The notes beneath the pieces were generated by a model, which was not told the DNA's origin, did not search any database, and saw nothing but the letters and a program-made list of their open reading frames with translations. A DNA stretch of 64,000 nt from a bacterium (lineage in GTDB: Bacteria > Patescibacteriota > Minisyncoccia > Minisyncoccales > CG1-02-41-26). Location of the stretch: positions 118,867 to 182,866 of the forward strand of contig JAUWWY010000002.1 of assembly GCA_030616605.1 (NCBI GenBank). The letters are read 5' to 3'. This document shows, piece after piece, positions 23,215 through 51,953 of this stretch (the first letter of the stretch is position 1; each line of letters opens with the position of its first letter). The position numbers and the translations under genes were made by a program.

Positions 23215-24294
23215 TTAAATTCGTAAATTAGCTTCGGCTTTGATTTGTTTCCAAGATTTCTTTTTCTTTCTGTTAAAATAAGCGGCTACTCCAACCATTG
23301 CTGCATTGTCAGTACAGAAATTAGTAAATGGCAAATGGCAAATGGCAAATGGTAATTGTTTTTTTACAGCTTCTTTCATTTGCTTTCGCAATTCATTGTT
23401 TGCAGTAACTCCTCCTCCCAATAGGATGCTTTTTGCTTTGTATTCTTTCGCCGCCTTGATTGTTTTTTTAATTAAAACATCAATAATTGCCTGTTGAATT
23501 TCTTTTGCCATTTCTTTAACATATCCTTTTGAGGTTCTGATTTTCTTACTTCTTTTTTTAAAGTCATACAAAACAGCAGTTTTTAATCCAGAAAAACTAA
23601 AGTCATAATCTTTACTGTTTATCATCGGTCTCGGCAGCTTTAGTTTAAATCTTGAATCTTGAATCTTGAACTTTTTAGCTAAAGCGGCAATAGCTGGGCC
23701 GCCGGGATAGGAAAGGCCTAAAATTCTGGCTGTTTTATCAAAACATTCTCCAGCAGCATCATCTCTTGTTTCACCGATTATCTTGTATTTGCCAATCTTT
23801 TTCATTAAAATCAATTGGCTATGTCCTCCGGAGATAACTAAACAAATTGCTGGAAACTTAATTAGATTGTTCGGTTTTGTAATAAGCCAATTGGCGAGAA
23901 TATGAGCTTCTATGTGATTTGCTGGAATAAGGGGTAATTTCCATTCTTGAGCCAGGGCTTTGGCGAAGTTTATTCCCGTCCACAAACATGGGTCTAATCC
24001 TGGTCCTATTGTGATTGCAATGGCATCAACTTTTTTAAGGAGATTAGCTTCTTTTAATGCTTTTTTTAAAACTGGTTCAAGATTTTTCCGATGTTCTCTT
24101 TTAGCCAGAGACGGATAAACTCCGCCATATTTTTGATGTAATTTTACTTGTGAAGATACAACATTGCTTAGAATTTTAAATTTCTCTTTTTTTACTTCTA
24201 ATATAGCAATACAAGTATCGTCGCAGGAAGTATCAATAGCCAGAATAATCATGGTTTTATACTTTATGATACCTGAAACATTGATTTTTTTCAA
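23215..24294 (-). CDS. tsaD: tRNA N6-adenosine threonylcarbamoyltransferase TsaD (Kae1/YgjD family)
   Basis: ILAIDTSCDDTCIAIL, DFSFSGLKTAV and CTDNAAMVG. Two in-frame heptamer patches (23326-23357 and 23647-23671). Confidence 0.8.
   Translation of the reverse strand: MKKINVSGIIKYKTMIILAIDTSCDDTCIAILEVKKEKFKILSNVVSSQVKLHQKYGGVYPSLAKREHRKNLEPVLKKALKEANLLKKVDAIAITIGPGLDPCLWTGINFAKALAQEWKLPLIPANHIEAHILANWLITKPNNLIKFPAICLVISGGHSQLILMKKIGKYKIIGETRDDAAGECFDKTARILGLSYPGGPAIAALAKKFKIQDSRFKLKLPRPMINSKDYDFSFSGLKTAVLYDFKKRSKKIRTSKGYVKEMAKEIQQAIIDVLIKKTIKAAKEYKAKSILLGGGVTANNELRKQMKEAVKKQLPFAICHLPFTNFCTDNAAMVGVAAYFNRKKKKSWKQIKAEANLRI
23326..23357 (-). repeat. In-frame heptamer patch (plus strand AAATGGC x3) inside tsaD
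   Basis: Direct reading; encodes LPFAICHLPF next to the conserved CTDNAAM motif. Confidence 0.75.
23647..23671 (-). repeat. In-frame heptamer patch (plus strand AATCTTG x3) inside tsaD
   Basis: Direct reading. Confidence 0.75.
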
Positions 24295-24319
24295 TTTTTA
24301 AGATAGGATTTACTAATCA

Positions 24320-24394
24320 GGCCCCGTCGTCTAGCCCGGTTTAGGACGCAGGGTTTTCATCCCTGTAACAGGGGTTCAAATCCCCTCGGGGCCG
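24320..24394 (+). tRNA. tRNA-Glu (anticodon UUC)
   Basis: GGCCCCGUCGUCUAGCCCGGUUUAGGACGCAGGGUUUUCAUCCCUG...GGGGUUCAAAUCCCCUCGGGGCCG. CCA is encoded at 24395-24397. Confidence 0.85.
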
Positions 24395-24461
24395 CCATAA
24401 GAAGATAAAAATACCCAGCTCGGACTGGGTATTTTTATAATAGATTTTAATTTTATCGATT

Positions 24462-25176
24462 TCAGGGTTGGATTCCATCAGAATCACTTTCTTCGGTTGA
24501 AGTAGCTTCTTCTAAGGATTCAAGTTCAACGTATTGGCTTAAAATTTCTTCCAGTTCTTTCTTAGCTTTAAAGCTGTAATAAACTTCATCATTAATAATT
24601 ATAATTGGCAGGTTTTTTTCTAAAAAGTAAATTGATTTTAAGGCTTGGATAGCTGAGAGATCCAAATCAAAATCAAAGGAATAAACTCTTAAAAAAGGAT
24701 ATTTTCCTCTAAGATTAGTTAAAATATAACCCTGGTTTTCGCAATCAGGACAGGTTTTCTTGTCTGAATAAAAGTAAATTATTGAAACAATATCTAAATC
24801 ACACTCTTTTACTGCTTTTTTTAAAAGGAGCCAGTGTTTTATTTCCAAAATTGAATAGTATTTTTTTAACCTTAAAAAATAAGAATTATTTCTGCCTAAA
24901 GTACTGCTGATTGAAGCTAATCTTCTGGAGATTTCATAAAGCTCTTGGGTTAAAGTTGACTCGTTTAAATTTTCACAGGGAGCTTGAGCTAAAATGGAAA
25001 ACTGAGTTTCCAGAGAAAGAATATCAATCCTTAAATCCTCTTGAACAGCTGTTATTTGGAGCATCCTTTTTTCTGCCAAGAAGTTACTTAAAAAAAAGCC
25101 ACTACTGAAAATTATCAAGGTAATTAAAAATATTAAAAAGTGTCTTTTCCAATTAAATTTCTTTTTCTCAGACATA
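24462..25176 (-). CDS. Membrane-anchored hypothetical protein with CPDC (CxxC) motif, possibly thioredoxin-like
   Basis: I took the start at the internal ATG (MSEKKKFNWKRHF...) because the longer ORF overlaps the upstream gene. One TM helix, then a soluble domain with CPDCENQGY. Confidence 0.3.
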
Positions 25177-26415
25177 TTATTGCCAAGAGATATCTTTTCT
25201 GACGAGAATAAAAAAGAAAGCAGAAATCCACCAAATTGCATTCAAAAAGACATATAACAAAAGATAAAAGACAGTATTTTTTGTTATAGATTTCTTATCA
25301 AAAGTAAGTTTTTTACTAAGAAATATGTAAGTTAAAATAGCAACTAAAGAAAGGAATCCTAAAATAAGAGTTGGTCTTATTAGTCCTAGATTAAATAAAA
25401 TCCAATCAGGCTGAAAAGAAAAAAGATTAAAGTAATCAAGTCCGACCAGTAAAAAATTATTAATTTTTTCTAAAAAGAAAAAACCGATTTTCCAGAAAAT
25501 GTAGCCGACTAAAACTATGGAGATGAAACTAGCGATAACGCTATAATAAAGCAAAAAGGAAAGATTGCCATGTTTTTTAATGTTTAGGAGCTCGAGATAA
25601 TCTTTAAGATTTAAAAGAAGACCTCTTCGCCATCTTAATCTTTGGTGGAAAAGAGACTTGAAAGTTGGGCAAGCTTTGGTGTAAACCAAGGAATCAATAG
25701 CATGGGCAATTTTGAAATTTGCTTTTTGAAGGCGAAAAGCAAATTCCAAATCTTCAGTCTGATGAGCTTTTCGATAAGGACCCAAAATTTTATAGACTTC
25801 CCGCCGGAAAACAGAAAGAGGACCAGGAGTGACATTAAGACTATCCAATATTGAAAAGACTTTTCTCAAGAAAGCAGCTATTAAAAATTCAATATATTGA
25901 ATTCCTTCTATAATGTTTTTTACTTCAGAAATTTTAATTGTTGAAATAACAGCCATTATTTTTTTATCTTCAAAATACTTCATTACTTTTTTCAAAGCTT
26001 TAGAATCTAAATAGGAGTCGCCATCAAGGGAACCAATAAATTGAGCTTTGGTTTTCAATAATCCGTAATTCAAAGCAGTATATTTGCCGCCGTTTTCCTT
26101 TCGGAAAACTCTAACTTGTTTAGTTCTTTTTTCAAAAGCTTTAGCTTTTAAAAAAGTGTCGTCTTTACTTCCGTCATCAACAACAATAATTTCTAATTTT
26201 TCCCTGGGATAGTCTAAATTTAATAAAGAATCAAGAGTTCTTTTTATATTTTTCCCTTCGTTGTAGCAGGGAACAATCAGACAAACCGAAGGAAAATTTT
26301 CTTTTTTTAAGCCCTTGTAAATCTCTTTTCGATTTTCAAAAAAGGTACTCAGGACAAAAATAGAAAAATAAAGTCCAAGAAATATTGCAATATATAAAGT
26401 TTCTATTAATATCAT
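25177..26415 (-). CDS. Family 2 glycosyltransferase with C-terminal membrane domain
   Basis: VPCYNEGKNIKRTLDSL, VVDDGSKDDT, DGDSYL and QRLRWRRG (the QxxRW motif of processive GT2 enzymes). Confidence 0.7.
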   Translation of the reverse strand: MILIETLYIAIFLGLYFSIFVLSTFFENRKEIYKGLKKENFPSVCLIVPCYNEGKNIKRTLDSLLNLDYPREKLEIIVVDDGSKDDTFLKAKAFEKRTKQVRVFRKENGGKYTALNYGLLKTKAQFIGSLDGDSYLDSKALKKVMKYFEDKKIMAVISTIKISEVKNIIEGIQYIEFLIAAFLRKVFSILDSLNVTPGPLSVFRREVYKILGPYRKAHQTEDLEFAFRLQKANFKIAHAIDSLVYTKACPTFKSLFHQRLRWRRGLLLNLKDYLELLNIKKHGNLSFLLYYSVIASFISIVLVGYIFWKIGFFFLEKINNFLLVGLDYFNLFSFQPDWILFNLGLIRPTLILGFLSLVAILTYIFLSKKLTFDKKSITKNTVFYLLLYVFLNAIWWISAFFFILVRKDISWQ

Positions 26416-26441
26416 TGTTTTAGTATAAACAATAAAAAAGA

Positions 26442-28622
26442 TTATTCCAAGTGGATTTTCTTTTTAAACCTTTTCAATCTTTCTTTCAAAATAGGATAAT
26501 TTTTTAATCCCGGATTTTCAATTAAAATCTCTTTTGCTGATTCTCTTGTTTTTTCCACAAGCTGAAGGTTTTTTAAATTTTCCATTGCTAAATCCGGAAT
26601 GCCCCATTGTCTCGCTCCAAAAAAGTTTCCCGGGCCTCGAATTTCCAAATCTTTTTGAGCTAATTCAAATCCATCTTTTGCCTTGAGCATTGCTGTCAAT
26701 CTCTGACGAGTTTTTTTAGCTTTTGACTCGGTAAATAAAAAACAGTAAGATTGCAAATCAGATCTTCCGACTCTGCCCCGAAATTGATGTAGTTGAGCCA
26801 GGCCAAATCTTTCGGCACCTTCAATCATCATTACGGTTGCTTGAGGGATATCAATCCCCACCTCAACTACAGAAGTTGAAACTAAAATATCAATTTTTTT
26901 ATTTCGAAAATCTTTCATTATCTTTTCTTTTTCTTTTGTTTTTATTTTACTATGGAGCATTTCAATGGTTAGATTAGGAAAAATTTCTTTTGAAAGTTTT
27001 TTATATTCCTCTTTAACTGCTTTAACATCTGTCCAACTTGATATATTTTTTTTGTCACTTGTCCCTTGCTGCTTGTCTCCCGGTTCTATTCTGGGACAAA
27101 TAACAAAAACCTGCTCACCAGCCTTAACTCTTTTTCTGATAAAATTATAAGCTTCATTTTTTTCTTTTAATGAAACAACTTTAGTAATAACCTTTTTTCT
27201 TCCTTTTGGCATTTCGTCTAAGATTGACAAATCCAAATCACCATAGACTGTCAAAGCTAAACTCCGAGGAATAGGGGTAGCAGTCATTGAAAGAAGATGA
27301 GGGATTTTTAGATTTTTACTGTTGATTCTTGGCTGTTGGATAAGTTTTGTACGCTGTTCTACACCAAAGCGGTGTTGTTCATCAATTATACATAAAGCCA
27401 AATTGCCAAATTTAACTTTATCCTGAATTAAAGAATGAGTGCCAATTAAAATATCAATTTCTCCTTTTCTAATTTTATCTAAAAGTTTATTTCGGGAAAT
27501 TTCTAAAATTTCAGGATTTAACCCTGAGCTTGTCGAATAGGCTAATTTTTGAGAAACAATTTTATCTTCTTTCCCAGTCAAAAGAGCAATTCTTACTTTA
27601 AATGGTTTCAGTAATTTTGGAACTTGTTGAAAATGTTGTTTGGCTAAGATTTCAGTTGGAACCATAAAAGCCACCTGGTAACCAGAAAGAACAGTATTCA
27701 GGCTGGCAATTAAAGCAACTATTGTTTTTCCGGAACCAACATCTCCTTGAAATAATCTTGACATTGGTCTTGGTTTTTCCAAATCTTTTAGAATTTGCCA
27801 ACTGCATTTTTTTTGGGCATCAGTTAATTTAAAGGGCAAAGAATCAACAAACTCTTTTATTAAATCAAGATTTAAAGGAATAGAAGGAGCTTTTTCTTGA
27901 TTTAATTTCAATCTTTCTTTTAAAACCGCTAACTCTATTAAAAACAGCTCCTCAAAGGAAAATCTTTCTTTTGCTTTTTCAGCCAATTTTATTGAATTTG
28001 GAAAATGAATCTGCCAGATTGCCTCTTGAATTGGTAAAAGATTGTATTTTTTGATTACTTTTTCCGGCAAAGATTCTTCAATTTGATTTTTAAATTTTTC
28101 CAAAATTAGTTTTAAAATCCATCTTAACCATTTTGAAGAAAGTCCTTCGGTTTCTGGATAGATAGGAATTATTCTTCCGGTATGGATAAGGTCGGATGTT
28201 GAATAATTAGATGCTAGAGATAGCTTTTCATAACTTGGACTTGATAGATAAATTCCCTCTTTGTCTAAGCTTGCTTTTCCAGCTAAACAAACATTATCTC
28301 CTTTTTTTAAAACCCTTATCAAATAGGGCTGGTTAAACCAAATAACTTTTATTGCTCCATTTTTATCTTCAACTACAGCCTCAGTTATAATTATCTTCTT
28401 TTTCCAGGTTCTTGAATTTTTAATTTCTAAAATTTTTCCTGCAATGCAGTTTGTTTGATTAATTTTTACTTTAGAAATAGGATGAATATTTGAAAAATCC
28501 TCATAGCGGTGAGGATAATGAAAGAGAACGTCTTCTATTGTTTTTATCCCTATCTTTTCTAACTTTTTCTGGAAAACTGGTCCAATCCGTGATATTTTTT
28601 TAACAGAAGTATCAAGCTTCAT
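26442..28622 (-). CDS. recG: ATP-dependent DNA helicase RecG
   Basis: GDVGSGKT, DEQHRFGV and MTATPIPRSL, with an N-terminal wedge domain. An in-frame heptamer patch lies near 27048-27079. Confidence 0.85.
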   Translation of the reverse strand: MKLDTSVKKISRIGPVFQKKLEKIGIKTIEDVLFHYPHRYEDFSNIHPISKVKINQTNCIAGKILEIKNSRTWKKKIIITEAVVEDKNGAIKVIWFNQPYLIRVLKKGDNVCLAGKASLDKEGIYLSSPSYEKLSLASNYSTSDLIHTGRIIPIYPETEGLSSKWLRWILKLILEKFKNQIEESLPEKVIKKYNLLPIQEAIWQIHFPNSIKLAEKAKERFSFEELFLIELAVLKERLKLNQEKAPSIPLNLDLIKEFVDSLPFKLTDAQKKCSWQILKDLEKPRPMSRLFQGDVGSGKTIVALIASLNTVLSGYQVAFMVPTEILAKQHFQQVPKLLKPFKVRIALLTGKEDKIVSQKLAYSTSSGLNPEILEISRNKLLDKIRKGEIDILIGTHSLIQDKVKFGNLALCIIDEQHRFGVEQRTKLIQQPRINSKNLKIPHLLSMTATPIPRSLALTVYGDLDLSILDEMPKGRKKVITKVVSLKEKNEAYNFIRKRVKAGEQVFVICPRIEPGDKQQGTSDKKNISSWTDVKAVKEEYKKLSKEIFPNLTIEMLHSKIKTKEKEKIMKDFRNKKIDILVSTSVVEVGIDIPQATVMMIEGAERFGLAQLHQFRGRVGRSDLQSYCFLFTESKAKKTRQRLTAMLKAKDGFELAQKDLEIRGPGNFFGARQWGIPDLAMENLKNLQLVEKTRESAKEILIENPGLKNYPILKERLKRFKKKIHLE
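27048..27079 (-). repeat. In-frame heptamer patch (coding strand GACAAGC AGCAAGG GACAAGT GACAAAA) inside recG
   Basis: Direct reading; encodes GDKQQGTSDKK. Confidence 0.6.
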
Positions 28623-28708
28623 AAAGATTGCTAAAATTTGACTTTTACCTTAAAATTATTATAGGTGAGACTTAGGTTAAAATCAACATTTTCTTTTTTT
28701 AAATCTTT

Positions 28709-28900: not shown

Positions 28901-28942
28901 CTAAAAGAAAGGAATTTAAAGGTCAATCTAAATAAATTAAAT

Positions 28943-29250: not shown

Positions 29251-29718
29251 ATGGTTTTTGATATTTCTCAATTAGAGCCTTTTTTACAGCTTTTATTGGC
29301 TACTTTTTTAGGTAGCTTAATTGGTTTAGAGAGAGAGTACAAAAGGAAGGAAGCTGGTTTAAAAACTTTTTCTCTGGTTTGTTTAGGAGCTTGTTTTTTT
29401 ACTGTTGTCGCCATTTATCTTAGTTCTTCCCAATCCCCGTTGTCTGCTTTTGTTCAAGTTGACCCGATTCGAGTAATCCAGGCCGTAGCTATCGGAATTA
29501 GTTTTATTGGTTCTGGGGTCATTATTTATCATAAGTTTCAGATTGAAGGATTAACTACTGCCGCTGCTCTCTGGTCAACTGCTGCTGTTGGAATAGGAAT
29601 AGGAATAGGATTGTATTTTTTGGCAATTTTGGCTAGCTTACTTACTATCTTAGTTTTAGCAGGATTCAGGCTAATAGAAGAGAAACTAATTCATACGGAT
29701 AAGGAGTATGAGGGATAA
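29251..29718 (+). CDS. MgtC/SapB family membrane protein
   Basis: LLLATFLGSLIGLEREYKRKEAGLKTFSLVCLG. Confidence 0.65.
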   Translation: MVFDISQLEPFLQLLLATFLGSLIGLEREYKRKEAGLKTFSLVCLGACFFTVVAIYLSSSQSPLSAFVQVDPIRVIQAVAIGISFIGSGVIIYHKFQIEGLTTAAALWSTAAVGIGIGIGLYFLAILASLLTILVLAGFRLIEEKLIHTDKEYEG

Positions 29719-33192: not shown

Positions 33193-34542
33193 ATGGGCAA
33201 CCTGTTTGTTTTTTTTAGAAATATCCAAGAATTAAAAGAAAAAAAGAGAAGAGGCTGGCTGCTTCATCAAATAAAAGATTCAGAGAACACTTCCAGTCAT
33301 ATTTTTAGAATGACAATTTTGGCTTGGCTGCTGGGTAGAAAGAAAGGACTGAATATCGAAAAAGTTATCAAGATGGCTTTAATCCATGATGTAGGCGAAG
33401 CCCTTACTTTTGATGAAACTCCTTATGACCCCCTTTTACCAAAGGGGATTGATTCAGCCCAAAGCAAGTCTCAAGTAAATGATATTCTTCAAAAATGGCC
33501 TAAATTTACCTTAGAGCAAAAAAAAGAAAAAGTTTCAAAAAAAGAACAAAGAGAATACCAGGCCTTAAAAAAAATCCTTTCAGACCTACCTTTATCTTTA
33601 AGAGAAGAAATGGAGAACCTTTGGCTTGATTTTGAGAAAGGACTTTCTAAGGAAGCAAGGTTTGTCAAACAAATTGATAAAGCCGAGAATTTTTTACAAG
33701 GTCTTGAATATTGGGAGAAATACGGCAGAATCCAGATTCATCTTTGGATAAGATGGATAAAGGAGATTTTTGATGACCCTTTACTAATAAGTTTTGAAGA
33801 AGCCATAGAGAGAAGATTTATTAAAAAGTCTAAAGGCAGAAAAAAAGACATAGATAAACTATTAGATTTTTTAATTGAGATTGGTGAGTTAAAAAACAAA
33901 GAAAGACCAAAATGGATTTTTAGAAAAGTTCCTAACCCGGAAAGAATAGCTGACCATAGTTTTGCTACTGCTATTATGGCTTGGGTTTTTTCAAAAGATA
34001 AAAATCTAAACCAAAGGAGACTTCTAAAAATGGCTTTAATTCATGAATTAAGTAAAGTTTATGCTGAAAGCACAAGGATTGAATACACACTTTCCCCAAA
34101 TCTTAGAGAGGAAATCAGAAAAATGATTAATGAACCTTCAAAATTTTCTCCCCTTAAAAGGGGAGAAATTTTAAAAGAACTTCAAAAAAAATACAAGAAG
34201 TGGCCTGAACTTTCTAAGAAAAAGAAAGAGAAGATTTTTGAAGAAAGATACAAAAAAGAAAAAAAATCAATTGAAAAATTAACTTTCTTTTTACCAAAGG
34301 AACTTAGAGAAGAAATAAGGGATTTATGGAATCAATATCGGAGAGGTTTAACTAGAGAAGGAAGATTTCTTCAGCAGATAGACATAACAGAGAATTTTTT
34401 TCAAGCTCTTAAATATTATCAAGCAGATAAAAATTTTCCAATTGAACCTTGGTGGAATGAAATAGGAGAAAAAATAGAAGAGCCTTTCCTTTTAAATTTT
34501 ATAGAATCTCTAAATAAAAAAGTCCCATTTGGAACAAGATAA
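33193..34542 (+). CDS. Tandem HD-domain protein (two YfbR-like 5'-deoxynucleotidase-type HD modules)
   Basis: Two repeats of HxFRMxxxAW...ALIHDxxE, at about aa 30-90 and aa 250-300. Confidence 0.55.
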   Translation: MGNLFVFFRNIQELKEKKRRGWLLHQIKDSENTSSHIFRMTILAWLLGRKKGLNIEKVIKMALIHDVGEALTFDETPYDPLLPKGIDSAQSKSQVNDILQKWPKFTLEQKKEKVSKKEQREYQALKKILSDLPLSLREEMENLWLDFEKGLSKEARFVKQIDKAENFLQGLEYWEKYGRIQIHLWIRWIKEIFDDPLLISFEEAIERRFIKKSKGRKKDIDKLLDFLIEIGELKNKERPKWIFRKVPNPERIADHSFATAIMAWVFSKDKNLNQRRLLKMALIHELSKVYAESTRIEYTLSPNLREEIRKMINEPSKFSPLKRGEILKELQKKYKKWPELSKKKKEKIFEERYKKEKKSIEKLTFFLPKELREEIRDLWNQYRRGLTREGRFLQQIDITENFFQALKYYQADKNFPIEPWWNEIGEKIEEPFLLNFIESLNKKVPFGTR

Positions 34543-42678: not shown

Positions 42679-44265
42679 ATGATTAGAGACGAGATTAAAA
42701 AATTAGTCAAAAAAGCAGTTGAAGAAAATTTTAATATTAAGTTAAAAGAAATTGAAATAGAAAAACCAAAACAAGAAAAATTTGGCGATTATGCCACAAA
42801 TATTGCTTTAATAATTGCCCAAAAAATAGGAAAAAATTCAAAAGAAATAGCAGAAACAATTACTCAATCTTTTGATAACTTAGTCACTCAATCACTTTTC
42901 GATAGAATTGAGACAGCTGACCACGGTTTTATCAATTTTTTTCTTTCTAAAAAATATCTACAAAACGAGATAAAAGAAATTTTGAAAAAGAAGGAGAAAT
43001 TCGGCAAATTAAAAATCGGCAAAGGAAAAAAAATACAGGTTGAATTTATTTCTGCTAATCCAACAGGCCCATTGACTGTGGGTAATGCCCGAGGTGGTCC
43101 TTTAGGTGATGTTTTAGCTAATGTTTTAGAAAAAGCCGGTTTCAAAACAGAAAAAGCTTATTATATTAATGATTATGGGATGCAGATTTTAGCTCTGGGA
43201 CATTCTGTTTTAAAAAGCAAAGAGGCAAAATATCAAGGAGATTATATTGATTATTTAAATAAAAAAATTAGAGAAAAAGATTCTTACAAAGCTGGCCAAG
43301 AAGCAGCTAAAATAATTATTGAGGAAATGATAAAAAAAACTACTGATAGAATGGGCATAAGATATGATGAATGGATTTCAGAAAACTCTTTTTATCAAAA
43401 AGGAGAAGTTGATAAAGTTTTGAAATTTTTAAAGAAAAAAGATTTGCTTTATGAAAAAGAAGGGGCAGTTTGGTTTAGGTCAATAAAGTTTGGAGATAAG
43501 AGAGATAGGGTACTGGTTAAATCTGACAGCTGGAAGACCTATCTGGCCGGCGACTTTGCTTTGCATAAATATAAGTTTGAAAAGAAAAAATTTGATAAAG
43601 TTATAAACATTTGGGGGGCTGACCATTACGGAGATATTCCCGGACTTCAGGCAGGCGTTGAGGCGATAGGTCATAAAGGCAAGCTGGATATTATTCTTTG
43701 CCAGTTTATCACTCTTTTGGAAAAAGGAGACAAGAAGAAAATGTCAAAAAGAAAAGGCCTTTATGTGACCATGGACGAATTATTGGACAAAGTTGGTCCT
43801 GACGTTACCAGATTCTTTTTTCTTCAGAAATCAGCCAGCACTCATTTAAATTTTGACTTGGATTTAGCTAAAGAACAGTCAGAGAAAAACCCGGTTTATT
43901 ATGTTCAGTATGCCTACGCTCGGATTTGTAGTATCCTAAGAGAGCTCAAAACGCAAAGCTCAAAGCGCAAAACTATAGCTCAAAATTTAAAGCTATTAAA
44001 TCATCCGAAAGAATTAAATCTTATTAAACAGCTTATTAGATTCCCAGAAATTATTGAAGATACAGCCTATGATTATCAGGTTCAAAGATTGCCACAATAT
44101 GCTCAGGAATTAGCAGCTTTATTTCATCAGTTTTATGGAGATTGTAGAGTTATCTCAACTGACAAAGAATTAACTCAAGTTCGTTTAGCTCTAATTTCAG
44201 CTGTAAAAATTGTTTTTAAAAATATTTTGGATTTAATGGGTATTTCTGCTCCCAAAAAGATGTAG
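42679..44265 (+). CDS. argS: Arginyl-tRNA synthetase
   Basis: FISANPTGPLTVGNARGG and KMSKRKG. An in-frame CAAAG-family repeat lies at 43944-43984. Confidence 0.9.
   Translation: MIRDEIKKLVKKAVEENFNIKLKEIEIEKPKQEKFGDYATNIALIIAQKIGKNSKEIAETITQSFDNLVTQSLFDRIETADHGFINFFLSKKYLQNEIKEILKKKEKFGKLKIGKGKKIQVEFISANPTGPLTVGNARGGPLGDVLANVLEKAGFKTEKAYYINDYGMQILALGHSVLKSKEAKYQGDYIDYLNKKIREKDSYKAGQEAAKIIIEEMIKKTTDRMGIRYDEWISENSFYQKGEVDKVLKFLKKKDLLYEKEGAVWFRSIKFGDKRDRVLVKSDSWKTYLAGDFALHKYKFEKKKFDKVINIWGADHYGDIPGLQAGVEAIGHKGKLDIILCQFITLLEKGDKKKMSKRKGLYVTMDELLDKVGPDVTRFFFLQKSASTHLNFDLDLAKEQSEKNPVYYVQYAYARICSILRELKTQSSKRKTIAQNLKLLNHPKELNLIKQLIRFPEIIEDTAYDYQVQRLPQYAQELAALFHQFYGDCRVISTDKELTQVRLALISAVKIVFKNILDLMGISAPKKM
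43944..43984 (+). repeat. CAAAG-family patch GCTCAAAACGCAAAGCTCAAAGCGCAAAACTATAGCTCAAAA inside argS
   Basis: Encodes ELKTQSSKRKTIAQN. Confidence 0.8.
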
Positions 44266-44840: not shown

Positions 44841-47726
44841 ATGGATTTTCCCAAAATTGAAAAAAAGATATTGAACTTTTGGAAAGAAAACAAGTTTTTT
44901 GAAAAGCTCCAGAAAAAAAACCGTGGTAAAAAACACTGGTCATTTTTAGATGGTCCGATAACAGCCAATAATCCAATGGGTGTTCATCATGCCTGGGGAA
45001 GGACATACAAAGATTTATTCCAGAGATATAAAGCAATGCAAGGTTTTGCTCAACGTTTCCAAAATGGTTTTGACTGTCAGGGTTTGTGGGTTGAAGTTGA
45101 AGTTGAAAAGGAACTGGGATTTGAAAATAAAAAAGACATTGAAAAATACGGCATAGAGAATTTTGTTCAGAAATGTAAAGAAAGGGTTTCAAAATATTCA
45201 AAAATTCAAACCGAGCAGTCAATCCGACTGGGCCAGTGGATGGATTGGGAAAATTCTTATTACACAATGTCTGACGAGAACAATTATGCTATCTGGCACT
45301 TTTTAAAAAAATGTCATCAAAAAGGACTTTTATACAAAGGCAGGGATGTAGTGCCCTGGTGTTCCAGGTGCGGGACGGCTATTTCCCAGCATGAAATTTT
45401 AGCTGAAGAGTATAAAGAAATAACTCATAAAGCTATTTTTGTAAAACTGCCCATTATTGGTGAGAAAAATACTTATTTTCTTGTTTGGACAACAACTCCC
45501 TGGACTTTACCAGCCAATGTTGCTTTAGCTGTTCAGCCGGAACTCAATTATGCCAAAATTAAAGATAAAAATGGGAATATATTTATTTTATTAAAAGATA
45601 AATCAAATCTCATTTCTGATGGAGAAATTAGAGAAACTTTTTTGGGTAAAAAATTAGAGGGTCTTAAATATCAGGGATTGTTTGATGAACTACCGGTTGT
45701 CAAAGAGAGTTTAGGAGATTACAAACACTCGGTCATTTTGTGGAAAGAAGTGACTGAAGAGGAAGGAACGGGAATTGTCCATATTGCTCCGGGTTGCGGA
45801 GAAGAAGATTTTCAGTTAAGCAAAGAATTTGATTTGCCGGTTATTAACCCTACTGATAATGAGAGTAGATATAAAGAGGGATTTGGAAAATTGAGTTCTA
45901 AATTTGTTCTTGTTGATGAAACAAGAGATATGATATTTGAAGACCTTTCAAAGAAAAATTTAGTTTTTAAAATTGAAGATTATACTCACCGTTATCCAAC
46001 TTGCTGGCGATGTAAAACAGAGCTAATTTTTCGTTTGGTTGACGAATGGTATATTGCCATGGATTCTTTGAGGAAGCCCTTAATGAAAAGTACTCACAAT
46101 GTTAAATGGATTCCTCTTTTTGGACTTGAAAGAGAATTGGATTGGCTGAAAAATATGAAAGATTGGTTAATTTCTAAAAAGAGATACTGGGGTTTGTCTC
46201 TGCCGATTTTTGAGTGTCAAAAGTGCGGCAATTTTGAAGTTATTGGTTCAAAAGAAGAACTAAAAGAAAAAACTGTTGAAGGTTGGGAAAAATTTGAAGG
46301 TCATTCTCCACACCGGCCCTGGGTAGATAAGATAAAAATTAAATGTTCAAAATGCGGCCAAATGATTTCCCGTATTCCAGATGTTGGTAATCCCTGGCTG
46401 GATGCTGGGATTGTTCCTTTTTCAACAATAAAATATTTTTCTGATAAGAATTTTTGGGGAAAGTGGTTTCCAGCTGATTTTATTTGTGAATCATTTCCTG
46501 GTCAGTTTAAAAACTGGTTTTATTCCCTTTTGGTAATGAGCCAGGTTTTGGAAAATACAAATCCATTTAGAACAATTTTTGGCTATGCCAGCGTGGTTGA
46601 TGAAAAAGGAGAAGAGATGCATAAATCTAAAGGCAATGTTATTTGGTTTGATGAAGCGGTTGAAAAAATAGGAGCTGATGTAATGAGATGGATGTATGTC
46701 AGGCAAAATCCTTTTTCTAATTTAAGGTTTGGTTATAACGTGGCAGCTGAGATAAAAAGAAAGCTTTTGACATTGTCGAACAGCTACAGCTTTTTTGAGA
46801 CCTATGGAGAGAAGTCAAAAGTCCGGCTTTCATCAAGGATTGAGCGGGCAAGCAAAAATCTTTTAGATAAATGGGTTGTTTCCCGATTAAACAGTTTAAT
46901 TGAAAAAGCTACTAAATCTTTAGATGTTTATAATTCTTCTCGGGCCGCTTTAGCAATAGAGAATTTTTTCATTAATGACTTATCTCTCTGGTATATCAGA
47001 AGAACAAGGAAAAGATTTCAAACCCCGAAAAGTAAAAAGGAAAAAAGAGAAGCAGAGAGAACTTTATATTATATACTTCTGACTTTAATAAAATTGATTG
47101 CTCCGACGATGCCCTTTTTTGCTGAAGAAGTTTACCAAAAATTAAGAAATGAAAAAATGCCAGAATCAGTGCATTTGTGCGATTGGCCAGATGGAGATAA
47201 AAAACTAATTGAGGAAAAATTAGAAAAAGAAATGGAAGAGGTTCGGGGAATTGTAACCAAGGTTTTAGCCAAAAGAACCGAATTGGGTATAAAAGTAAGA
47301 CAACCGCTTAAAAAATTAAAAATCAAAAATCAAAAATTAAAAATGAGTAAAGGATTATTAAATTTAATTAAAGAAGAAGTTAATGTTAAAGATATAATTT
47401 TTGACAACAAGATTAAAGAGGAGATAGAACTGGATATAGAAATTAGCCCGAAGTTAAAAGAGGAAGGAGAGGTTAGGGAAATTATTCGTCAGATTCAGGA
47501 TTTGCGTAAAAAAGTAGGTTTAACCCCAAAAGACAGAATTATCGTTTACTATTTAAGCAGTCCAAAACTAGCTAAAATTTTAATTAAAAACAAAAATCTA
47601 ATTCTTAAGACTACCAAATCAGAAAAACTTAAAGAGAGTTTAAATAAGGAAGGAGATTTTGAAGCTCAGAAAGAAATTGAAATTAATAAAGAAAAACTCT
47701 TTCTGGCAATTAAAAAGGTCAAATAA
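44841..47726 (+). CDS. ileS: Isoleucyl-tRNA synthetase
   Basis: WTTTPWTLPAN, WLISKKRYWG, KMSKSKGN, and a CWRC zinc knuckle. An AAAAATC heptamer patch lies at 47311-47345. Confidence 0.8.
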   Translation: MDFPKIEKKILNFWKENKFFEKLQKKNRGKKHWSFLDGPITANNPMGVHHAWGRTYKDLFQRYKAMQGFAQRFQNGFDCQGLWVEVEVEKELGFENKKDIEKYGIENFVQKCKERVSKYSKIQTEQSIRLGQWMDWENSYYTMSDENNYAIWHFLKKCHQKGLLYKGRDVVPWCSRCGTAISQHEILAEEYKEITHKAIFVKLPIIGEKNTYFLVWTTTPWTLPANVALAVQPELNYAKIKDKNGNIFILLKDKSNLISDGEIRETFLGKKLEGLKYQGLFDELPVVKESLGDYKHSVILWKEVTEEEGTGIVHIAPGCGEEDFQLSKEFDLPVINPTDNESRYKEGFGKLSSKFVLVDETRDMIFEDLSKKNLVFKIEDYTHRYPTCWRCKTELIFRLVDEWYIAMDSLRKPLMKSTHNVKWIPLFGLERELDWLKNMKDWLISKKRYWGLSLPIFECQKCGNFEVIGSKEELKEKTVEGWEKFEGHSPHRPWVDKIKIKCSKCGQMISRIPDVGNPWLDAGIVPFSTIKYFSDKNFWGKWFPADFICESFPGQFKNWFYSLLVMSQVLENTNPFRTIFGYASVVDEKGEEMHKSKGNVIWFDEAVEKIGADVMRWMYVRQNPFSNLRFGYNVAAEIKRKLLTLSNSYSFFETYGEKSKVRLSSRIERASKNLLDKWVVSRLNSLIEKATKSLDVYNSSRAALAIENFFINDLSLWYIRRTRKRFQTPKSKKEKREAERTLYYILLTLIKLIAPTMPFFAEEVYQKLRNEKMPESVHLCDWPDGDKKLIEEKLEKEMEEVRGIVTKVLAKRTELGIKVRQPLKKLKIKNQKLKMSKGLLNLIKEEVNVKDIIFDNKIKEEIELDIEISPKLKEEGEVREIIRQIQDLRKKVGLTPKDRIIVYYLSSPKLAKILIKNKNLILKTTKSEKLKESLNKEGDFEAQKEIEINKEKLFLAIKKVK
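47311..47345 (+). repeat. In-frame heptamer patch (AAAAATC/AAAAATT x4-5) inside ileS
   Basis: Direct reading; encodes KKLKIKNQKLKM. Confidence 0.75.
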
Positions 47727-47729
47727 TAT

Positions 47730-48059
47730 ATGTCAAAAAATCCAAAAGAAACATCAAAAGAACCAGCCAAAGAAGATTTTTTTGGCAAAAAGGGCTATCT
47801 TTCTAGAATACAACTAAGAGAAAGGTTAAGAAAAGCTTCCCCCAAAATTCCCGGTTCAACAAAATGGTATACTCAACAGCAAAGAATAAATCTGGAAAAA
47901 GAAGTTTTTGCTAAAGGATATGGCGATTATATTACTCGCCAAGAATATCAACGTCGACTTCGAGAACTAAGCAGAGAAAAATTTAAAGTAAAAACAAGCC
48001 AAGAAAAGATAGATATTAATAGAAAAATAAGATACTTGAAAAAATTAGGAGGTTTTTAG
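47730..48059 (+). CDS. Small basic hypothetical protein
   Basis: K/R-rich, 109 aa; I recognised no motif. Confidence 0.3.
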   Translation: MSKNPKETSKEPAKEDFFGKKGYLSRIQLRERLRKASPKIPGSTKWYTQQQRINLEKEVFAKGYGDYITRQEYQRRLRELSREKFKVKTSQEKIDINRKIRYLKKLGGF

Positions 48060-48067
48060 GTTTAACA

Positions 48068-48889
48068 ATGGCATTTACTCATTATAGAACTGGAGGGATT
48101 TTTTTAAAGAAAGATGATCGGGGAGAGGCCGATCAGCTTTTTACAATTTTTACCAAAGAGTTTGGAAAACTCAAAGTTTTAGGAAGAGCTATTCGAAAAA
48201 TTAAATCAAAATTGAGGGTTGGAGCCGATATTTTTTATTTGTCAGAAATTGAATTTATTCAAGGAAAAACCTACAAAACTTTAACTGATGCTATTTTAAT
48301 AGATAAATTTAAAAATTTGAGAAAAGATGCTGAAAAAATAGATTTTAGTTACAAAATAACTGATGTTTTAGATTCTTTAACCGGCGAAGAGGAAAAAGAC
48401 CCCAAAATCTGGCAATTATTAATCCAAACATTTAAATCACTTAATAACCCGATGACTCAATCACTCAATGACTCAATCACTTATTACTTTCTCTGGAATT
48501 TCTTTTCTCTTTTAGGATTCAAACCCGAACTTTACTCTTGTCCAATTTGCGAAAAAAAACTTCTGCCTGAAACTTTTTTATTTGTGCCAAAGGAAGGAGG
48601 GGTGGTTTGTTGGAAATGCTTTGAGAAGCTTAAAGAAGAACCTGCCTTTTTATCCGCCGAAGCTCCATCAGAAGCGAAGGCGGGCGCTGAAGCTACGACA
48701 GGCAGGGAAAAGAAATTGGCAAAGGAAATAAGCGTGGATACGGTTAAAATTTTAAGGCTTTTTCTTTCAGAAAATGGGAATATATTGTCAAGGATTAAGA
48801 TAAGAGAAGAGAATAAGAAAAATTTAGAAGAGATATCAGAAAATTACCTCAATTTTTTAAAAGAGGAGTTTTCAAGAATGGAAAAATAA
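48068..48889 (+). CDS. recO: DNA repair protein RecO
   Basis: N-terminal OB-fold pattern and a C-terminal CPICEKK...CWKC zinc finger. An 8-nt periodic in-frame patch lies at 48451-48484. Confidence 0.5.
   Translation: MAFTHYRTGGIFLKKDDRGEADQLFTIFTKEFGKLKVLGRAIRKIKSKLRVGADIFYLSEIEFIQGKTYKTLTDAILIDKFKNLRKDAEKIDFSYKITDVLDSLTGEEEKDPKIWQLLIQTFKSLNNPMTQSLNDSITYYFLWNFFSLLGFKPELYSCPICEKKLLPETFLFVPKEGGVVCWKCFEKLKEEPAFLSAEAPSEAKAGAEATTGREKKLAKEISVDTVKILRLFLSENGNILSRIKIREENKKNLEEISENYLNFLKEEFSRMEK
48451..48484 (+). repeat. In-frame 8-nt periodic patch (ATGACTCA/ATCACTCA x4) inside recO
   Basis: Direct reading; encodes MTQSLNDSIT. Confidence 0.7.
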
Positions 48890-48906
48890 GTTAAGATAAT
48901 AATATC

Positions 48907-50595
48907 ATGCGTAAAGTTTTAATTATTTTTCTTTTAGTCATTTTTATTGGAGTAGGAATAGTTGGATTTTGGTATTGGCAAAAAAATATTTATTCCAAAG
49001 ACACTTTGAAACTTGAAATTTTAGGACCTGAATTAGTTCAAGCCGGCCAGGAAATTGAGTATTTAGTAAAAATGAAAAATAATGGCAAAGTTAGATTGGA
49101 AAATCCTGAGTTAATCTTTCAGGCTCCGGAGCAATCTATTTTAAAAGATTATTCTAATTTAAGAGTTACTCAAAAAATAGAAGACATTTATCCCGGTGAA
49201 CAAAGAACATATTCTTTTAAAGCTCAGCTTTTCGGAGAAAAAGACATTACTTTGGAAGCCAAAGCTTGGTTAAGTTATCAACCAAAGAATTTAAAAGCTC
49301 GCTTTGAATCAAAAACAACCTTGACGATAAGAATTGAATTTATTCCCTTAACTTTTGAGTTTGATTTACCTCTAAAGGTTGAAAAAGGGGAGGATATAAA
49401 ATTTTCTTTAAATTATTTTTCAAACATTGATTATCTTTTAGAGAATTTAAGAGTAAAAATTGAATATCCATCAGATTTTACTTTTGAAAGTTCTCTTCCC
49501 GAAGCTTTAGATGAAAATGAGTGGTCCTTGCCTCCTTTAGTTCAGGCTTCAGGAGGAAGAATAGAGATAAATGGACTAATTGAAGGAAAAGAGGGTCAGA
49601 AAAAGGTTTTCCGAGCCCAGCTGGGCATGCTTAAAGACGGAGATTTTTGGCTCTTAAAAGAAACTGCTCAATCAATAGAAATAATTGAGTCTTCTTTGTA
49701 CATTTCTAATTTAATTAATAATTCCCCAAATTATACAGCAAATCCCGGTGATTTTCTTCATTATGAGATTTACTTTAAAAATATTGGCAAAAGACCAGTT
49801 CAGAAGAAATATATTTTTGCTCGACTTGAGGGAGAATTTTTTGACTTAACAACTCTAAAATCAAACAAGGGAGAATTTGGCCAAGGGGATAACACTATTC
49901 TCTGGGACTGGAAAAATGTTCCCGACCTCAGATTTTTAGATGTTGGTCAAGAAGGAAAGGTTGAATTTTGGATAAGAGTCAAGGAAAGTGTTGATTATCA
50001 AGTTAAAAACGCAAAATTAAGAGCAGAAATAGCTTTAGGGGAAATTGAGAAAGTTTTTGAGACGAAAATAAATTCCCAATTAACTCTTTTCCAAAAAGCC
50101 TACTTTACTCAAGAATTTTTTGAAAATCTAGGTTCTTTGCCGCCCAAGATAGGTCAAGCCATTGATTATGTTATTGTCTGGCAAGTGGAAAATACTTGTA
50201 ATGAGTTAAAAAATGTTAAAGTAAAAAGTGCTTTATCAGAAAATGTTCAGCCGACTGGCAAAATTTTTCCCGAAGATGCTAAATTCACTTATGATTCAGA
50301 ATCAAAAACTGTAATGTGGAATATCGGAGAAGTCAACGCTTGGCAGAGTTTTGAAAATATTCCTCTGATTTTAGCCTTCCAGGTCAGATTGACTCCTGAT
50401 TTTTCTCAAAAAGGAAAAACTCCTCTTTTGATTAAGGAAAGTAATATTTTGGCTGAAGACAATTGGACTTCAGAAATTTTAGAAGAAAAAGCTTCAGCAG
50501 TGAATACCACTTTACCCGATGATGAAACCGTCAGTCCAGAACAAGGAATAGTGGAAGAACAAGGAATAGTGGAAGAACAAGGAATAGTGGAGTGA
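48907..50595 (+). CDS. Membrane-anchored exported protein with beta-sandwich (DUF11/CARDB-like) repeats, hypothetical
   Basis: N-terminal TM/signal segment and repeated beta-rich modules. The C-terminus ends in three EQGIVE copies (an 18-nt DNA repeat at 50539-50592). Confidence 0.35.
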   Translation: MRKVLIIFLLVIFIGVGIVGFWYWQKNIYSKDTLKLEILGPELVQAGQEIEYLVKMKNNGKVRLENPELIFQAPEQSILKDYSNLRVTQKIEDIYPGEQRTYSFKAQLFGEKDITLEAKAWLSYQPKNLKARFESKTTLTIRIEFIPLTFEFDLPLKVEKGEDIKFSLNYFSNIDYLLENLRVKIEYPSDFTFESSLPEALDENEWSLPPLVQASGGRIEINGLIEGKEGQKKVFRAQLGMLKDGDFWLLKETAQSIEIIESSLYISNLINNSPNYTANPGDFLHYEIYFKNIGKRPVQKKYIFARLEGEFFDLTTLKSNKGEFGQGDNTILWDWKNVPDLRFLDVGQEGKVEFWIRVKESVDYQVKNAKLRAEIALGEIEKVFETKINSQLTLFQKAYFTQEFFENLGSLPPKIGQAIDYVIVWQVENTCNELKNVKVKSALSENVQPTGKIFPEDAKFTYDSESKTVMWNIGEVNAWQSFENIPLILAFQVRLTPDFSQKGKTPLLIKESNILAEDNWTSEILEEKASAVNTTLPDDETVSPEQGIVEEQGIVEEQGIVE

Positions 50596-50609
50596 TTGTT
50601 TAATTATTT

Positions 50610-51953
50610 ATGGATTTAACTCAAAAAATTATATCTTTATCTAAAAGAAGGGGATTTATTTTTCCTTCTTCTGAAATTTATGGAGGAATAGGTGGAGTTT
50701 ATGACTTCGGTCCTCTTGGAAATGAGTTAAAAAGAAACATTAAGAAAGTTTGGTGGCAAAGTATGATGAAAGAGGAAAATATGGTCGGTTTAGATTCTGG
50801 GATTTTATTGAATCCTCGAGTTTGGCAGGCCTCTGGTCATTTAACTGCTGGTTTTGCTGATGAATTGGTAGAGTGTAAATCTTGCCACAAGAGATTTAAG
50901 AAAAATGAGATAGCCGGCAACAAATGCCCGGAATGCAGTGGTAAACTGACAAAACCAAGAAAATTTAATTTAATGATGAAAACCTTTGTTGGGCCGGTTG
51001 AAGATAATAGTTCTATTACTTATTTAAGACCTGAAACCTGTCAGGGGATTTTTGTTAATTTTTTGAACATTTTGAATTCAATGCGCTTAAAAATTCCCTT
51101 CGGTGTTATTCAAATAGGTAAATCTTTTCGAAACGAAATTACTACTAAAAACTTTATTTTCCGGACTCGAGAATTTGAACAAATGGAAATGGAGCTGTTC
51201 TGTCATCCCAAAGAGGCAGATAAACTTTTTGATTACTGGAAAGAACAGAGATTAAAGTGGTATCAAGATTTAGGAATAAAAAAAGAGAATTTAAGGGTTG
51301 TAGAAGTCTCAAAAGAAGACCGGGCTCACTATGCCAAAAGGCAAACAGATATTGAATATCATTTTCCCTTTGGTTGGGAAGAAATTGAAGGAATTCACAA
51401 TAGGGGAGATTTTGACCTTTCAAATCACTCAAAACATTCTGGAGAAGATTTGAAATATTTCGATGAGAAATCAGACCAGAAATATTTTCCTTATATTATT
51501 GAAACTTCGGTTGGGGTAGAAAGACCTTTATTTGCTTTTTTAACTGAAGCTTATCAAGAAATAAAAGGAGGAAGAAAAAAAATCAAAAATCAAAAATCAA
51601 AAATCAAAATTAAACACGAAGCAGAAATTTTATTAAAGTTAGATAAAAGACTAGCCCCAATAAAAGTTGCAGTTCTGCCCTTAGTCAGAAATAAACCAGA
51701 GATTGTCAAGAAGGCAAAGGAAATTTATAATCTTTTAAGACCTCATTTTAGCTCTCAATATGATGAAGTTGGTTCAATCGGCCGTCGCTATCGCCGCCAA
51801 GACGAAGTAGGAACAATTTTTTCAATCACTGTTGATTTTCAGACCCTGGAAGACGATACAATAACTTGTCGGGACCGCGATACAATGGCCCAAGAAAGAG
51901 TAAAAATAAAGGATTTAGTTAAAAGTTTAAAAGAAAAATTAGAGAATTGTTAG
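50610..51953 (+). CDS. glyQS: Glycyl-tRNA synthetase (dimeric class II, archaeal/eukaryote type)
   Basis: GFIFPSSEIYGGIGGVYDFGPLG N-terminus and class II motifs. An AAAAATC heptamer patch lies at 51575-51613. Confidence 0.85.
   Translation: MDLTQKIISLSKRRGFIFPSSEIYGGIGGVYDFGPLGNELKRNIKKVWWQSMMKEENMVGLDSGILLNPRVWQASGHLTAGFADELVECKSCHKRFKKNEIAGNKCPECSGKLTKPRKFNLMMKTFVGPVEDNSSITYLRPETCQGIFVNFLNILNSMRLKIPFGVIQIGKSFRNEITTKNFIFRTREFEQMEMELFCHPKEADKLFDYWKEQRLKWYQDLGIKKENLRVVEVSKEDRAHYAKRQTDIEYHFPFGWEEIEGIHNRGDFDLSNHSKHSGEDLKYFDEKSDQKYFPYIIETSVGVERPLFAFLTEAYQEIKGGRKKIKNQKSKIKIKHEAEILLKLDKRLAPIKVAVLPLVRNKPEIVKKAKEIYNLLRPHFSSQYDEVGSIGRRYRRQDEVGTIFSITVDFQTLEDDTITCRDRDTMAQERVKIKDLVKSLKEKLENC
51575..51613 (+). 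repeat. In-frame heptamer patch (AAAAATC x4) inside glyQS
   Basis: Direct reading; encodes KKIKNQKSKIKIK. Confidence 0.75.

Follow-up and report, generated by a model that had tools for sequence, protein, structure and literature searches.

Heptanucleotide repeats are the commonest class of long simple sequence repeats (LSSRs) with units of 5–11 nt in many bacteria, for which a model of slippage over the polymerase footprint has been put forward (Mrazek et al. 2007, as related in PMC4692102 and PMC4679880). The prokaryotic heptamers named in these two papers include GGGAATC of Xanthomonas, GGGGAYT and the short tandemly repeated repetitive (STRR) repeats of Nostoc, and TAACTGA of the Beggiatoaceae. 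The present analysis concerns short arrays of 7-nt units that are read in frame within tsaD, recG, ileS, recO, the glycyl-tRNA synthetase (GlyRS) gene and other housekeeping genes of an uncultured bacterium of Parcubacteria type within the Patescibacteria, or Candidate Phyla Radiation (CPR); the window is the whole stretch of DNA analyzed, 64 kb of contig JAUWWY010000002.1 with ~33% GC and a typical housekeeping gene content. As in the LSSRs described by Mrazek, Guo & Shah (2007), period 7 is dominant and the repeats are strongly lineage-specific and appear to vary in length and sequence between close relatives. Known LSSRs, in the accounts cited, are overwhelmingly intergenic and often long, with one or few units per genome, and those in coding regions mostly have units that are multiples of three; in contrast, 83% of the arrays studied here lie in open reading frames (ORFs), essential genes included, and they comprise dozens of units, are short (mode 4.5 units) and, when long, tend to be extended by 21 nt.

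An in-ORF heptanucleotide repeat with frame-dependent translation is also known from NeuO of the E. coli K1 prophage CUS-3, whose poly-psi variable number tandem repeat, (AAGACTC)n, encodes one RLKTQDS heptad per three units, is translated only in multiples of three units, and yields a hydrophilic, unstructured peptide (PMC3046976). Its unit is one base off the AAGATTC found in tsaD, which codes for KIQDSRF. NeuO is a single 5'-terminal phase-variable locus with 2–93 copies in an accessory gene (PMC3046976), whereas the arrays here are internal, short, apparently frame-fixed and housed in housekeeping genes, and no on/off states were seen. The repeats of Borgs are similar in being genome-specific, pervasive, A-rich and perfect, in occurring in and between ORFs and independently in homologues, and in adding new, mostly hydrophilic protein segments; however, Borg in-ORF units are all divisible by three and longer, with often larger arrays, and neither a 7-nt register nor a three-unit quantization has been reported for them (PMC9879509). 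Unlike the amino acid tandem repeats of Borgs, the units here are 7 nt and, once, 8 nt long.

Direct-repeat misalignment and inverted-repeat strand switching are said by the Lovett laboratory to be outcomes of one kind of replication error in E. coli, and Elhai et al. (2008) reportedly described cyanobacterial heptamer repeats paired with nested small dispersed palindromic repeats. The arrays and perfect palindromes that share loops in the present material match such a dual outcome, which would be a putative link in CPR; unlike in the E. coli and cyanobacterial cases, the palindromes copy local coding sequence and lie in frame inside genes. A search within a literature collection found nothing linking heptanucleotide or tandem repeats with Patescibacteria or Parcubacteria. 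The heptanucleotide microsatellite is of a known kind, while its pervasive in-gene form in CPR appears to be undescribed; it is marked by its pervasiveness in essential genes, its shortness, its tendency to extend in multiples of 21 nt, its recurrence in orthologous loops and its frequent coupling to locally templated hairpins.

An earlier note on this DNA had pointed to six periodic patches in five genes, which are listed here with their host genes (named from NCBIfam) and with the copy numbers and matches given by Tandem Repeats Finder (TRF).

23215-24294, minus strand: TsaD gene
23326..23352, minus strand: tsaD array E, AAATGGC x3.9, 100% match
23648..23670, minus strand: tsaD array D, AATCTTG x3.3, 100% match; sense unit CAAGATT
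26442-28622, minus strand: RecG gene
27048..27077, minus strand: decayed recG array, GACAAGC AGCAAGG GACAAGT GACAAAA
44841-47726, plus strand: isoleucyl-tRNA synthetase (IleRS) gene
47311..47344, plus strand: ileS array, AAAAATY x4.9 (AAAAATC in TRF, 92% match)
48068-48889, plus strand: RecO gene
48435..48481, plus strand: recO period-8 array, x5.9, 74% match; six 8-nt units, 48 nt, in frame
50610-51953, plus strand: dimeric GlyRS gene
51578..51609, plus strand: GlyRS array, AAAAATC x4.6, perfect

Tandem arrays were called by TRF and by exact-run scans, and the patches proved to be real: TRF reported five of the six, those in tsaD, ileS and the GlyRS gene at period 7 and that in recO at period 8. 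The recG patch, a decayed period-7 array, gave no TRF call at a score of 30 or more and was recovered by a pattern search for GACAAGN x3 with 2–3 mismatches (27051-27077, minus strand; 0.03 expected). Each patch consists of head-to-tail 7-nt units in at least three copies, with recO (period 8) and recG (decayed) as the exceptions, and all six are translated in frame within intact ORFs. In a comparison with shuffled controls, as had been proposed, the window had 7 period-7 arrays (at least three copies, at most one mismatch), where dinucleotide shuffles yielded 0.03; with a local score the count was 8, and within-gene codon shuffles yielded 0.08. These counts rule out a chance origin. At periods 8–15 the window held nothing beyond the recO 8-mer and one period-12 array.

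Array E of tsaD has the sense unit CCATTTG (CAAATGG on the plus strand) and encodes LPFAICHLPFT directly before NFCTDNAAM, so that it does adjoin the conserved CTDNAAM motif as had been noted. It aligns with the segment 'WNYEVFF-PPLEL' of T. maritima TsaD, a beta-strand and not a loop. Array D encodes KFKIQDSRFK in the loop between PGGPAIAxxAKK and LPRPM, which exceeds that of T. maritima TsaD by 4 residues. The solved TsaD and GlyRS served as references in these alignments, as a single-sequence AlphaFold2 model of TsaD reached a mean pLDDT of 42 and was set aside. The recG array encodes GDKQQGTSDK in a hypervariable loop after ICPRIE, the core of the recO array (48452-48481) is a perfect 16-nt unit x2, and the GlyRS array encodes KKIKNQKSKIKIK in the linker that joins the catalytic domain to the anticodon-binding domain, where the protein of the window is 9 residues longer than the solved GlyRS. 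In ileS, KKLKIKNQKLK is encoded after KVRQPL; units 1 and 4 carry a T that is read as TTA, and unit 3 carries C where T would create an in-frame TAA, a pattern that speaks for translation of the arrays and for selection on them as coding sequence.

The patches had been described as unrelated in sequence to the CAAAG arrays of the same window. This label is inaccurate, since the patch units (CAAGATT, CAAAAAT, CAAGNGA and CAATSACT in sense, CAAATGG in antisense) share a CAAR-led architecture with the CAAAGCK arrays. Phase-locked runs of at least three CAARNNN units number 11 in the window against 0.05 expected, and cover the tsaD, recG and GlyRS patches together with CAAAGCK arrays in valS (two), argS, gyrA, metS and a Mur-ligase gene. 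CAAR is on the sense strand in 10 of the 11 runs, independent of the DNA strand of the gene, and tsaD array E is the sole antisense-CAAR array in the window; exactly four units make up 8 of the 11. The further arrays of the window are as follows.

1394..1469, plus strand: Mur-ligase gene module, a 14-bp perfect stem (1394-1407 / 1427-1440) and then an array
16856..16884, plus strand: gyrA array, CAAAGTG CAAAACT CAAAGCG CAAAACT
21017..21067, minus strand: valS array, CAAAGCT x4 and decayed units; sense-upstream hairpin at 21067-21090, fold z = -3.0
22558..22584, minus strand: valS array (site 2), CAAAGCG x3.9, perfect
43943..43984, plus strand: argS array, CAAAACG CAAAGCT CAAAGCG CAAAACT
60634..60666, plus strand: decayed array in an RsmI-like methyltransferase gene, AACTACA x4.7
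62354..62406, plus strand: metS array, 7.7 units of CAAAGCG/CAAAACT

The Mur-ligase array itself, AAGCCCA/AAGCTCA x4.3, occupies 1440-1469 directly 3' of its hairpin (z = -6.8). The CAAAGCK unit is present at six or more sites and is the only flavour that recurs in the window; the six patches carry five different units, and perfect arrays of four kinds of unit are present side by side. Read in the sense direction, the units contain 49% A and 7% G, and the residues they encode are mainly K, S, N, I and Q, with 20% Lys. CAA occurs in 64% of units and in 23% of stop-free background heptamers, a difference by which stop-codon avoidance was rejected as the full cause of the CAAR core. No shared flank or target motif was found, as the 15 nt on each side of 105 arrays have the base composition of the background. 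The idea that the patches were seeded by the CAAAG element was not supported, given that the CAAAG arrays are members of one class, that the flanks lack a shared motif and that four perfect units occur in one genome.

To place the arrays in their lineage, the window was compared mainly with its Parcubacteria relatives, in 80 loci that cover 1.04 Mb around tsaD; labels such as L001 and L002 denote individual loci compared with the window. The nearest TsaD relatives are 44–69% identical (GTDB contigs, one genome per species) and come from metagenome-assembled genomes (MAGs) labelled Nealsonbacteria, Staskawiczbacteria, Gribaldobacteria, Portnoybacteria, Parcubacteria/Paceibacterota and Minisyncoccales. 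At 90% identity the window proteins are singletons in a large protein collection, where they sit on a 224-kb NCBI contig, with one valyl-tRNA synthetase (ValRS) fragment as the exception, and an all-against-all megablast found almost no close pairs among the loci. A stringent scan of the 80 loci gave 97 period-7 arrays and at most 4 arrays of any other period from 4 to 12. Density is 8–11 arrays per 100 kb in each of the four Parcubacteria bins of identity and likewise in the 18 metagenomic loci with the closest GlyRS, compared with 0.6 per 100 kb in other bacteria (518 kb). Heptamer arrays are absent (0, with ~10 expected) from the low-GC, more distant loci L094-L102 (117 kb, 28–48% GC), whose GlyRS is 56–65% identical to that of the window; AT-richness was rejected on this ground, as array-free low-GC loci indicate that base composition is not the cause. 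The trait has sharp phylogenetic limits, which could be used for tracing its cause.

Two observations from outside this lineage may be added. Among 58 distant loci the sole array-bearing one is L132, a non-CPR GlyRS locus of 63% GC with long heptamer arrays (L132:1464-1504 and two more), including AGTAACC x13; these are probably an instance of the known intergenic type. At least 119 viral contigs (IMG/VR, L162-L280), giant-virus MAGs included, match the pattern (CAAANNN)4CAAA exactly, and together they hold 177 period-7 arrays of broad, unquantized lengths, with 5–8 each in L227, L254, L279 and L239. Heptamer arrays are therefore widespread, and nothing CPR-specific follows from the viral scan.

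Of 127 arrays, 105 lie in ORFs (inside a stop-free frame of at least 100 aa), all in frame, and 22 lie in short intergenic spacers between separate genes; none splits a gene. The tendency to form short 7-nt arrays inside coding DNA is real and extends well beyond the window, to Parcubacteria relatives, but it is not confined to coding DNA, the spacers holding 17%. Hosts include TsaD, RecG, RecO, IleRS, GlyRS, ValRS, the arginyl- and methionyl-tRNA synthetases (ArgRS, MetRS), GyrA and Mur ligase, as well as a GT2 glycosyltransferase. The length mode is 30–33 nt, or 4.5 units; 7 of 11 longer arrays measure 51–55, 73 or 93 nt, in steps of 21 nt, and the remainder 40, 41, 63 and 64 nt. At a third site in tsaD, site C, most array-bearing relatives have a loop of 13 aa, and L042, with 7.5 units, has one of 20 aa. 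That the gain or loss of one unit would shift the frame, as had been argued, is displayed by the 4.5-unit mode and by the spacing of the long arrays. A clustering near 31 nt is seen in intergenic arrays too (mod-21 concentration 0.41, p = 0.03, n = 20), and about half of the 22 contain stop codons in all six frames. Of the 105 in-ORF arrays, 34 are perfect, in host proteins that are 30–50% divergent. Some intergenic arrays take up almost all of their spacer (L041:20514-20544, L037:6056-6082, L029:17340-17377, L031:14654-14684, L070:2123-2161); several of these have a stop in every frame and end 0–2 nt before the next start codon (e.g., L041 and L037), where a Shine-Dalgarno sequence is expected.

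Arrays at orthologous positions were found in relatives at both tsaD sites and in ileS, recO and recG, and in many independent assemblies. At tsaD site D, most relatives have a similar loop length with different units (CAAAATT x5 in L013, CAAACTA x5 in L011, AATCTTC in L006 and AAGTTAA in L020), and decayed versions are present in others; at site E, relatives of equal length carry decayed period-7 sequence. The ileS arrays CAAATTC x4.5 (L082), GAATTAA (L081) and GAAATCC (L098) agree with that of the window in position and length. Heptamer arrays occupy the recO site in relatives (CAATTTR x4.5 in L092, GGAAATT in L084, CTACTCN in L087, and a 2.3-copy short form in L093), so that the recO patch is a rare 8-nt variant at a heptamer-array site. 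The recG loop holds a similar decayed array in L036 (GACAAGA AACAAGG GACAAAA GACAAAG), GGAGCTT in L037 and GAAGCTN in L039, and orthologous argS arrays are present in L084 and L092. The valS loop at 22558-22584 lacks an array in most relatives, and the GlyRS linker has the short, array-free form GGRTKTTKATKE in 23 of the 23 closest relatives, 6 aa shorter than in the window, which indicates that the GlyRS array is a recent, lineage-specific gain. In relative L002, CAAATGT / CGAAATGT occurs at three sites (L002:10396-10428, L002:13060-13085 and tsaD site D), which echoes the recurrence of CAAAGCK in the window.

A second feature of the arrays is their association with hairpins. Of 102 in-ORF arrays, 27 start -3 to +8 nt from the 3' end of a perfect sense-strand hairpin of at least 7 bp (2.2% per side at random, p = 2e-21), and 3 have such a hairpin downstream, giving a polarity of p = 8e-6. 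Arrays at tsaD sites C and D show the tightest coupling (21 of 49), and those outside tsaD show it as well (6 of 53, p ~0.001); for the 81 orthologues compared at site C, the presence of an array goes with that of a hairpin (odds ratio 7.5, p = 1.5e-4). The left arm at site C is the lineage's own coding sequence for the end of a conserved helix and the right arm is its exact inverted copy, meaning that the hairpins are locally templated; perfect palindromes with stems of up to 22 bp also occur there without arrays. Between lineages, stems at tsaD site C and valS site 1 vary in concert, keeping perfect pairing. Stems of 8 bp or longer with a GC content of 50% or more form 242 hairpins in 1.33 Mb, where block shuffles give ~23, and 99 of the 242 lie within long ORFs. 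Of the arrays in the window, only the first valS array and the Mur-ligase array carry an adjoining hairpin, as do 3 of 20 intergenic arrays.

Further modules of hairpin and then array were noted in relatives at L042:6765-6838, L020:761-819, L039:10497-10587, L004:4226-4282 and L038:7195-7287. Perfect palindromes are mostly GC-rich and in frame in conserved genes, often in array-bearing hypervariable loops. Those of the window are at 34136-34177 (HD-domain gene), 8809-8846 (radical SAM gene), 59788-59810 and 12122-12143; the longest in-frame examples in relatives are in three tsaD ORFs, with a 22-bp stem at site C of L065_0 and 17-bp stems at site C of L058_4 and site D of L055_0, and others are at L021:6192-6227 (recG), L005:5956-5986 (tsaD) and L001:6255-6273 (valS). 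A possible dispersed palindrome family, GCAATCCCGC...GCGGGATGC, is shared by valS of L001 and a different gene of L002.

We favour, with a probability of roughly 60%, the explanation that the patches are heptanucleotide microsatellites produced by a lineage-specific misalignment of nascent DNA in a 7-nt register during replication or repair and then filtered by selection. Slipped-strand or template-switch errors would misalign the nascent strand; direct misalignment would give arrays and strand switching perfect palindromes, as two products of one error class. Slippage, which the earlier note had also considered, is a plausible generating event, and the arrays would have no dedicated function. 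The explanation draws on the specificity for period 7, on a lineage distribution independent of base composition, on the sense bias, on the quantized lengths and on recurrence at orthologous sites; template switching in particular is favoured by the arrays that start next to a hairpin and by the exact inverted copy at tsaD site C. Selection may act on arrays and palindromes alike, for frame, absence of stops and a tolerable peptide, so that surviving genic arrays would carry no stop codon in any of the three frames read. As the frame must be kept, genic copy number would change only in threes (21 nt, 7 aa), and as K/N/Q/S/I-rich surface loops are tolerated, the A-rich CAAR strand would almost always be sense. 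Arrays presumably start perfect and decay by point substitution into 7-aa-periodic loops at permissive sites, which may be hit anew in other lineages. Intergenic arrays, about half of them with stops in six frames, suggest that the process acts on DNA in general, and perfect arrays in diverged hosts, differing orthologous units and the unique GlyRS array point to ongoing turnover. Single-stranded DNA exonucleases of E. coli suppress both tandem-repeat misalignment and quasipalindrome switching, and the loss of such functions in reduced genomes is a candidate cause. The explanation is also consistent with the general excess of heptanucleotides, with the polymerase-footprint idea and with NeuO.

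Several observations weigh against this explanation. The birth of an array in an essential gene requires the addition of three units with no viable state at one or two, for which simple stepwise slippage is insufficient. Array-bearing and array-less orthologues differ by +4 to +8 aa and not by clean multiples of 7. The ~31-nt clustering of intergenic arrays occurs without a frame constraint, which hints at an intrinsic length preference, and the CAA bias exceeds what stop avoidance alone predicts. Units are shared modestly more within genomes (19.7%) than between them (12%, p = 0.0135), and CAAAGCK recurs as described. The 27:3 polarity of hairpins follows the gene or the A-rich strand, and in a fold test none of the six patches (0/6) has a significant upstream hairpin. 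Lastly, the only close relative, the ValRS fragment with 95% identical DNA (L161), has 6 substitutions in 49 nt of the 21017-21067 array and the same number of units. Since the three-unit birth, the intergenic mode, the unit sharing and the hairpin polarity are left unexplained, an active templated mechanism keeps a share of the probability.

In its bolder and more tentative form, which we rate at clearly less than even odds, such a proposal would hold that either a peculiarity of Parcubacteria replication or repair or a dedicated, possibly reverse-transcriptase-based activity writes locally templated insertions of the form 'perfect hairpin + (7 nt) x4.5', and that these may be a principal source of new loops, and the source of at least one fifth of recognizable insertions, in conserved proteins of a lineage that is otherwise streamlined. 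The stricter version is unlikely: a dedicated mechanism would write such cassettes, which would not be passive slips of replication, the candidates being a reverse transcriptase acting on mRNA, a specialized polymerase, or gene conversion between arrays. Reverse transcriptases are common in CPR, and the hairpin-then-array order on the sense strand would fit a polymerase that copies sense RNA, or the sense strand, and stalls at the hairpin. The preferred length of ~31 nt outside ORFs as well as inside them, the sharing of units within genomes (CAAAGCK at its window sites, CAAATGT at the three sites of L002) and the appearance of complete arrays with no intermediates are in keeping with it. However, four different perfect units stand side by side in one genome, no conserved flank or target motif is present, the right arms of the hairpins copy local sequence and not an element, intergenic arrays seldom have a hairpin, and a candidate enzyme was not identified in the analysis. 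Addition from a single template, as by telomerase, is disfavoured by the four perfect units of the window. A small mobile element, such as a miniature inverted-repeat transposable element (MITE) or an element of the repetitive extragenic palindromic (REP), Rickettsia palindromic element (RPE) or small dispersed repeat (SDR) type, is disfavoured given the differing units, the limited sharing between sites, the lack of a target motif and the local origin of the hairpins.

Slightly less probable again is an adaptive role for the encoded peptides, in which Lys/Asn/Gln/Ser-rich heptad loops would benefit the protein, perhaps by adding contacts to nucleic acid in tRNA synthetases, TsaD, RecG, RecO and GyrA. 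Many of the hosts bind RNA or DNA and a fifth of the encoded residues are Lys, arrays recur in orthologous loops of many lineages, frequently with the length conserved (tsaD site D and ileS), and the heptanucleotide-coded heptad extension of NeuO raises catalytic efficiency (PMC3046976). In opposition to this, arrays are also found in Mur ligase, the GT2 glycosyltransferase and intergenic spacers, many orthologues do without them (all 23 GlyRS relatives, and most relatives at valS site 2), the units and hence the peptides vary freely between lineages, and one array encodes a hydrophobic beta-strand.

A signal at the level of nucleic acid is improbable; here the hairpin with its A-rich array, or the intergenic arrays abutting start codons, would serve processing, pausing, initiation or a protein that reads heptamers. 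The perfectly co-varying stems at tsaD site C and valS site 1 are compatible with such a signal, although a recent inverted duplication would equally give perfect stems, and the spacer-filling arrays of L041 and L037 that end just before a start codon are in keeping with it as well. Cold-shock proteins have been reported to bind one heptamer each (cited in PMC4679880). However, 75 of 102 arrays, all six patches included, lack a hairpin, the units are very diverse, and conservation of the Rfam type is absent. Contingency loci, at which frequent copy-number slips would switch genes on and off as in the phase variation of NeuO, are very improbable: the in-ORF heptanucleotide design is that of NeuO and a one-unit change does shift the frame, but the hosts are essential single-copy housekeeping genes and not accessory, surface or virulence genes, every genic array (105/105) is in frame with no gene split at an array, and the arrays are short and unchanged in copy number at 95% DNA identity. 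An assembly or sequencing artefact has next to no probability, as arrays recur in MAGs produced by many different studies and assembly programs (contig names in MEGAHIT, SPAdes and other styles), always with preserved ORFs, and are shared, with substitutions, between independent assemblies (the window and L161; L068 and L072).

The arrays provide a concrete mutational source for some of the many lineage-specific protein insertions of CPR/Patescibacteria, whose origin is unexplained. Seven housekeeping proteins were surveyed for minority insertions of 5 aa or more, of which 39 of 209, or at least 19%, retain a period-7 signature, compared with 20 of 627 control segments (3%). The period-7 runs look like the footprint of a lineage-wide slip in DNA copying that adds or rewrites small loops in conserved proteins. 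As a marker read from DNA letters separates array-rich from array-free sub-lineages, the underlying difference in replication or repair should be findable by comparative genomics. The arrays also display how non-triplet microsatellites can persist in essential genes if copy number is limited to three-unit steps, they offer natural sites for strain typing, and together with the palindromes they will interfere with the alignment, phylogeny and structure prediction of CPR marker proteins.

The window contains other repeats with units that are multiples of a codon. Five such arrays are perfect, among them the hexamer GGAATA x3.5 at 29590-29610, which gives a small hydrophobic protein the stretch GIGIGIG. 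Positions 50538-50591 hold a perfect threefold repeat of 18 nt, AGAACAAGGAATAGTGGA, which encodes EQGIVE x3 as the very last residues of a DUF7619/DUF11-like protein, up to the stop codon. A long degenerate region of 6-, 12-, 18- and 99-nt repeats at 57356-57681 encodes the PEPEPK-like C-terminal repeats of an 1811-aa protein that contains an F5/8 type C domain. The RNA genes found in the window include a transfer-messenger RNA (tmRNA) and a tRNA-Ile with the anticodon UAU, which is uncommon in bacteria; the latter adjoins tRNA-Val(GAC) at 10751-10915.

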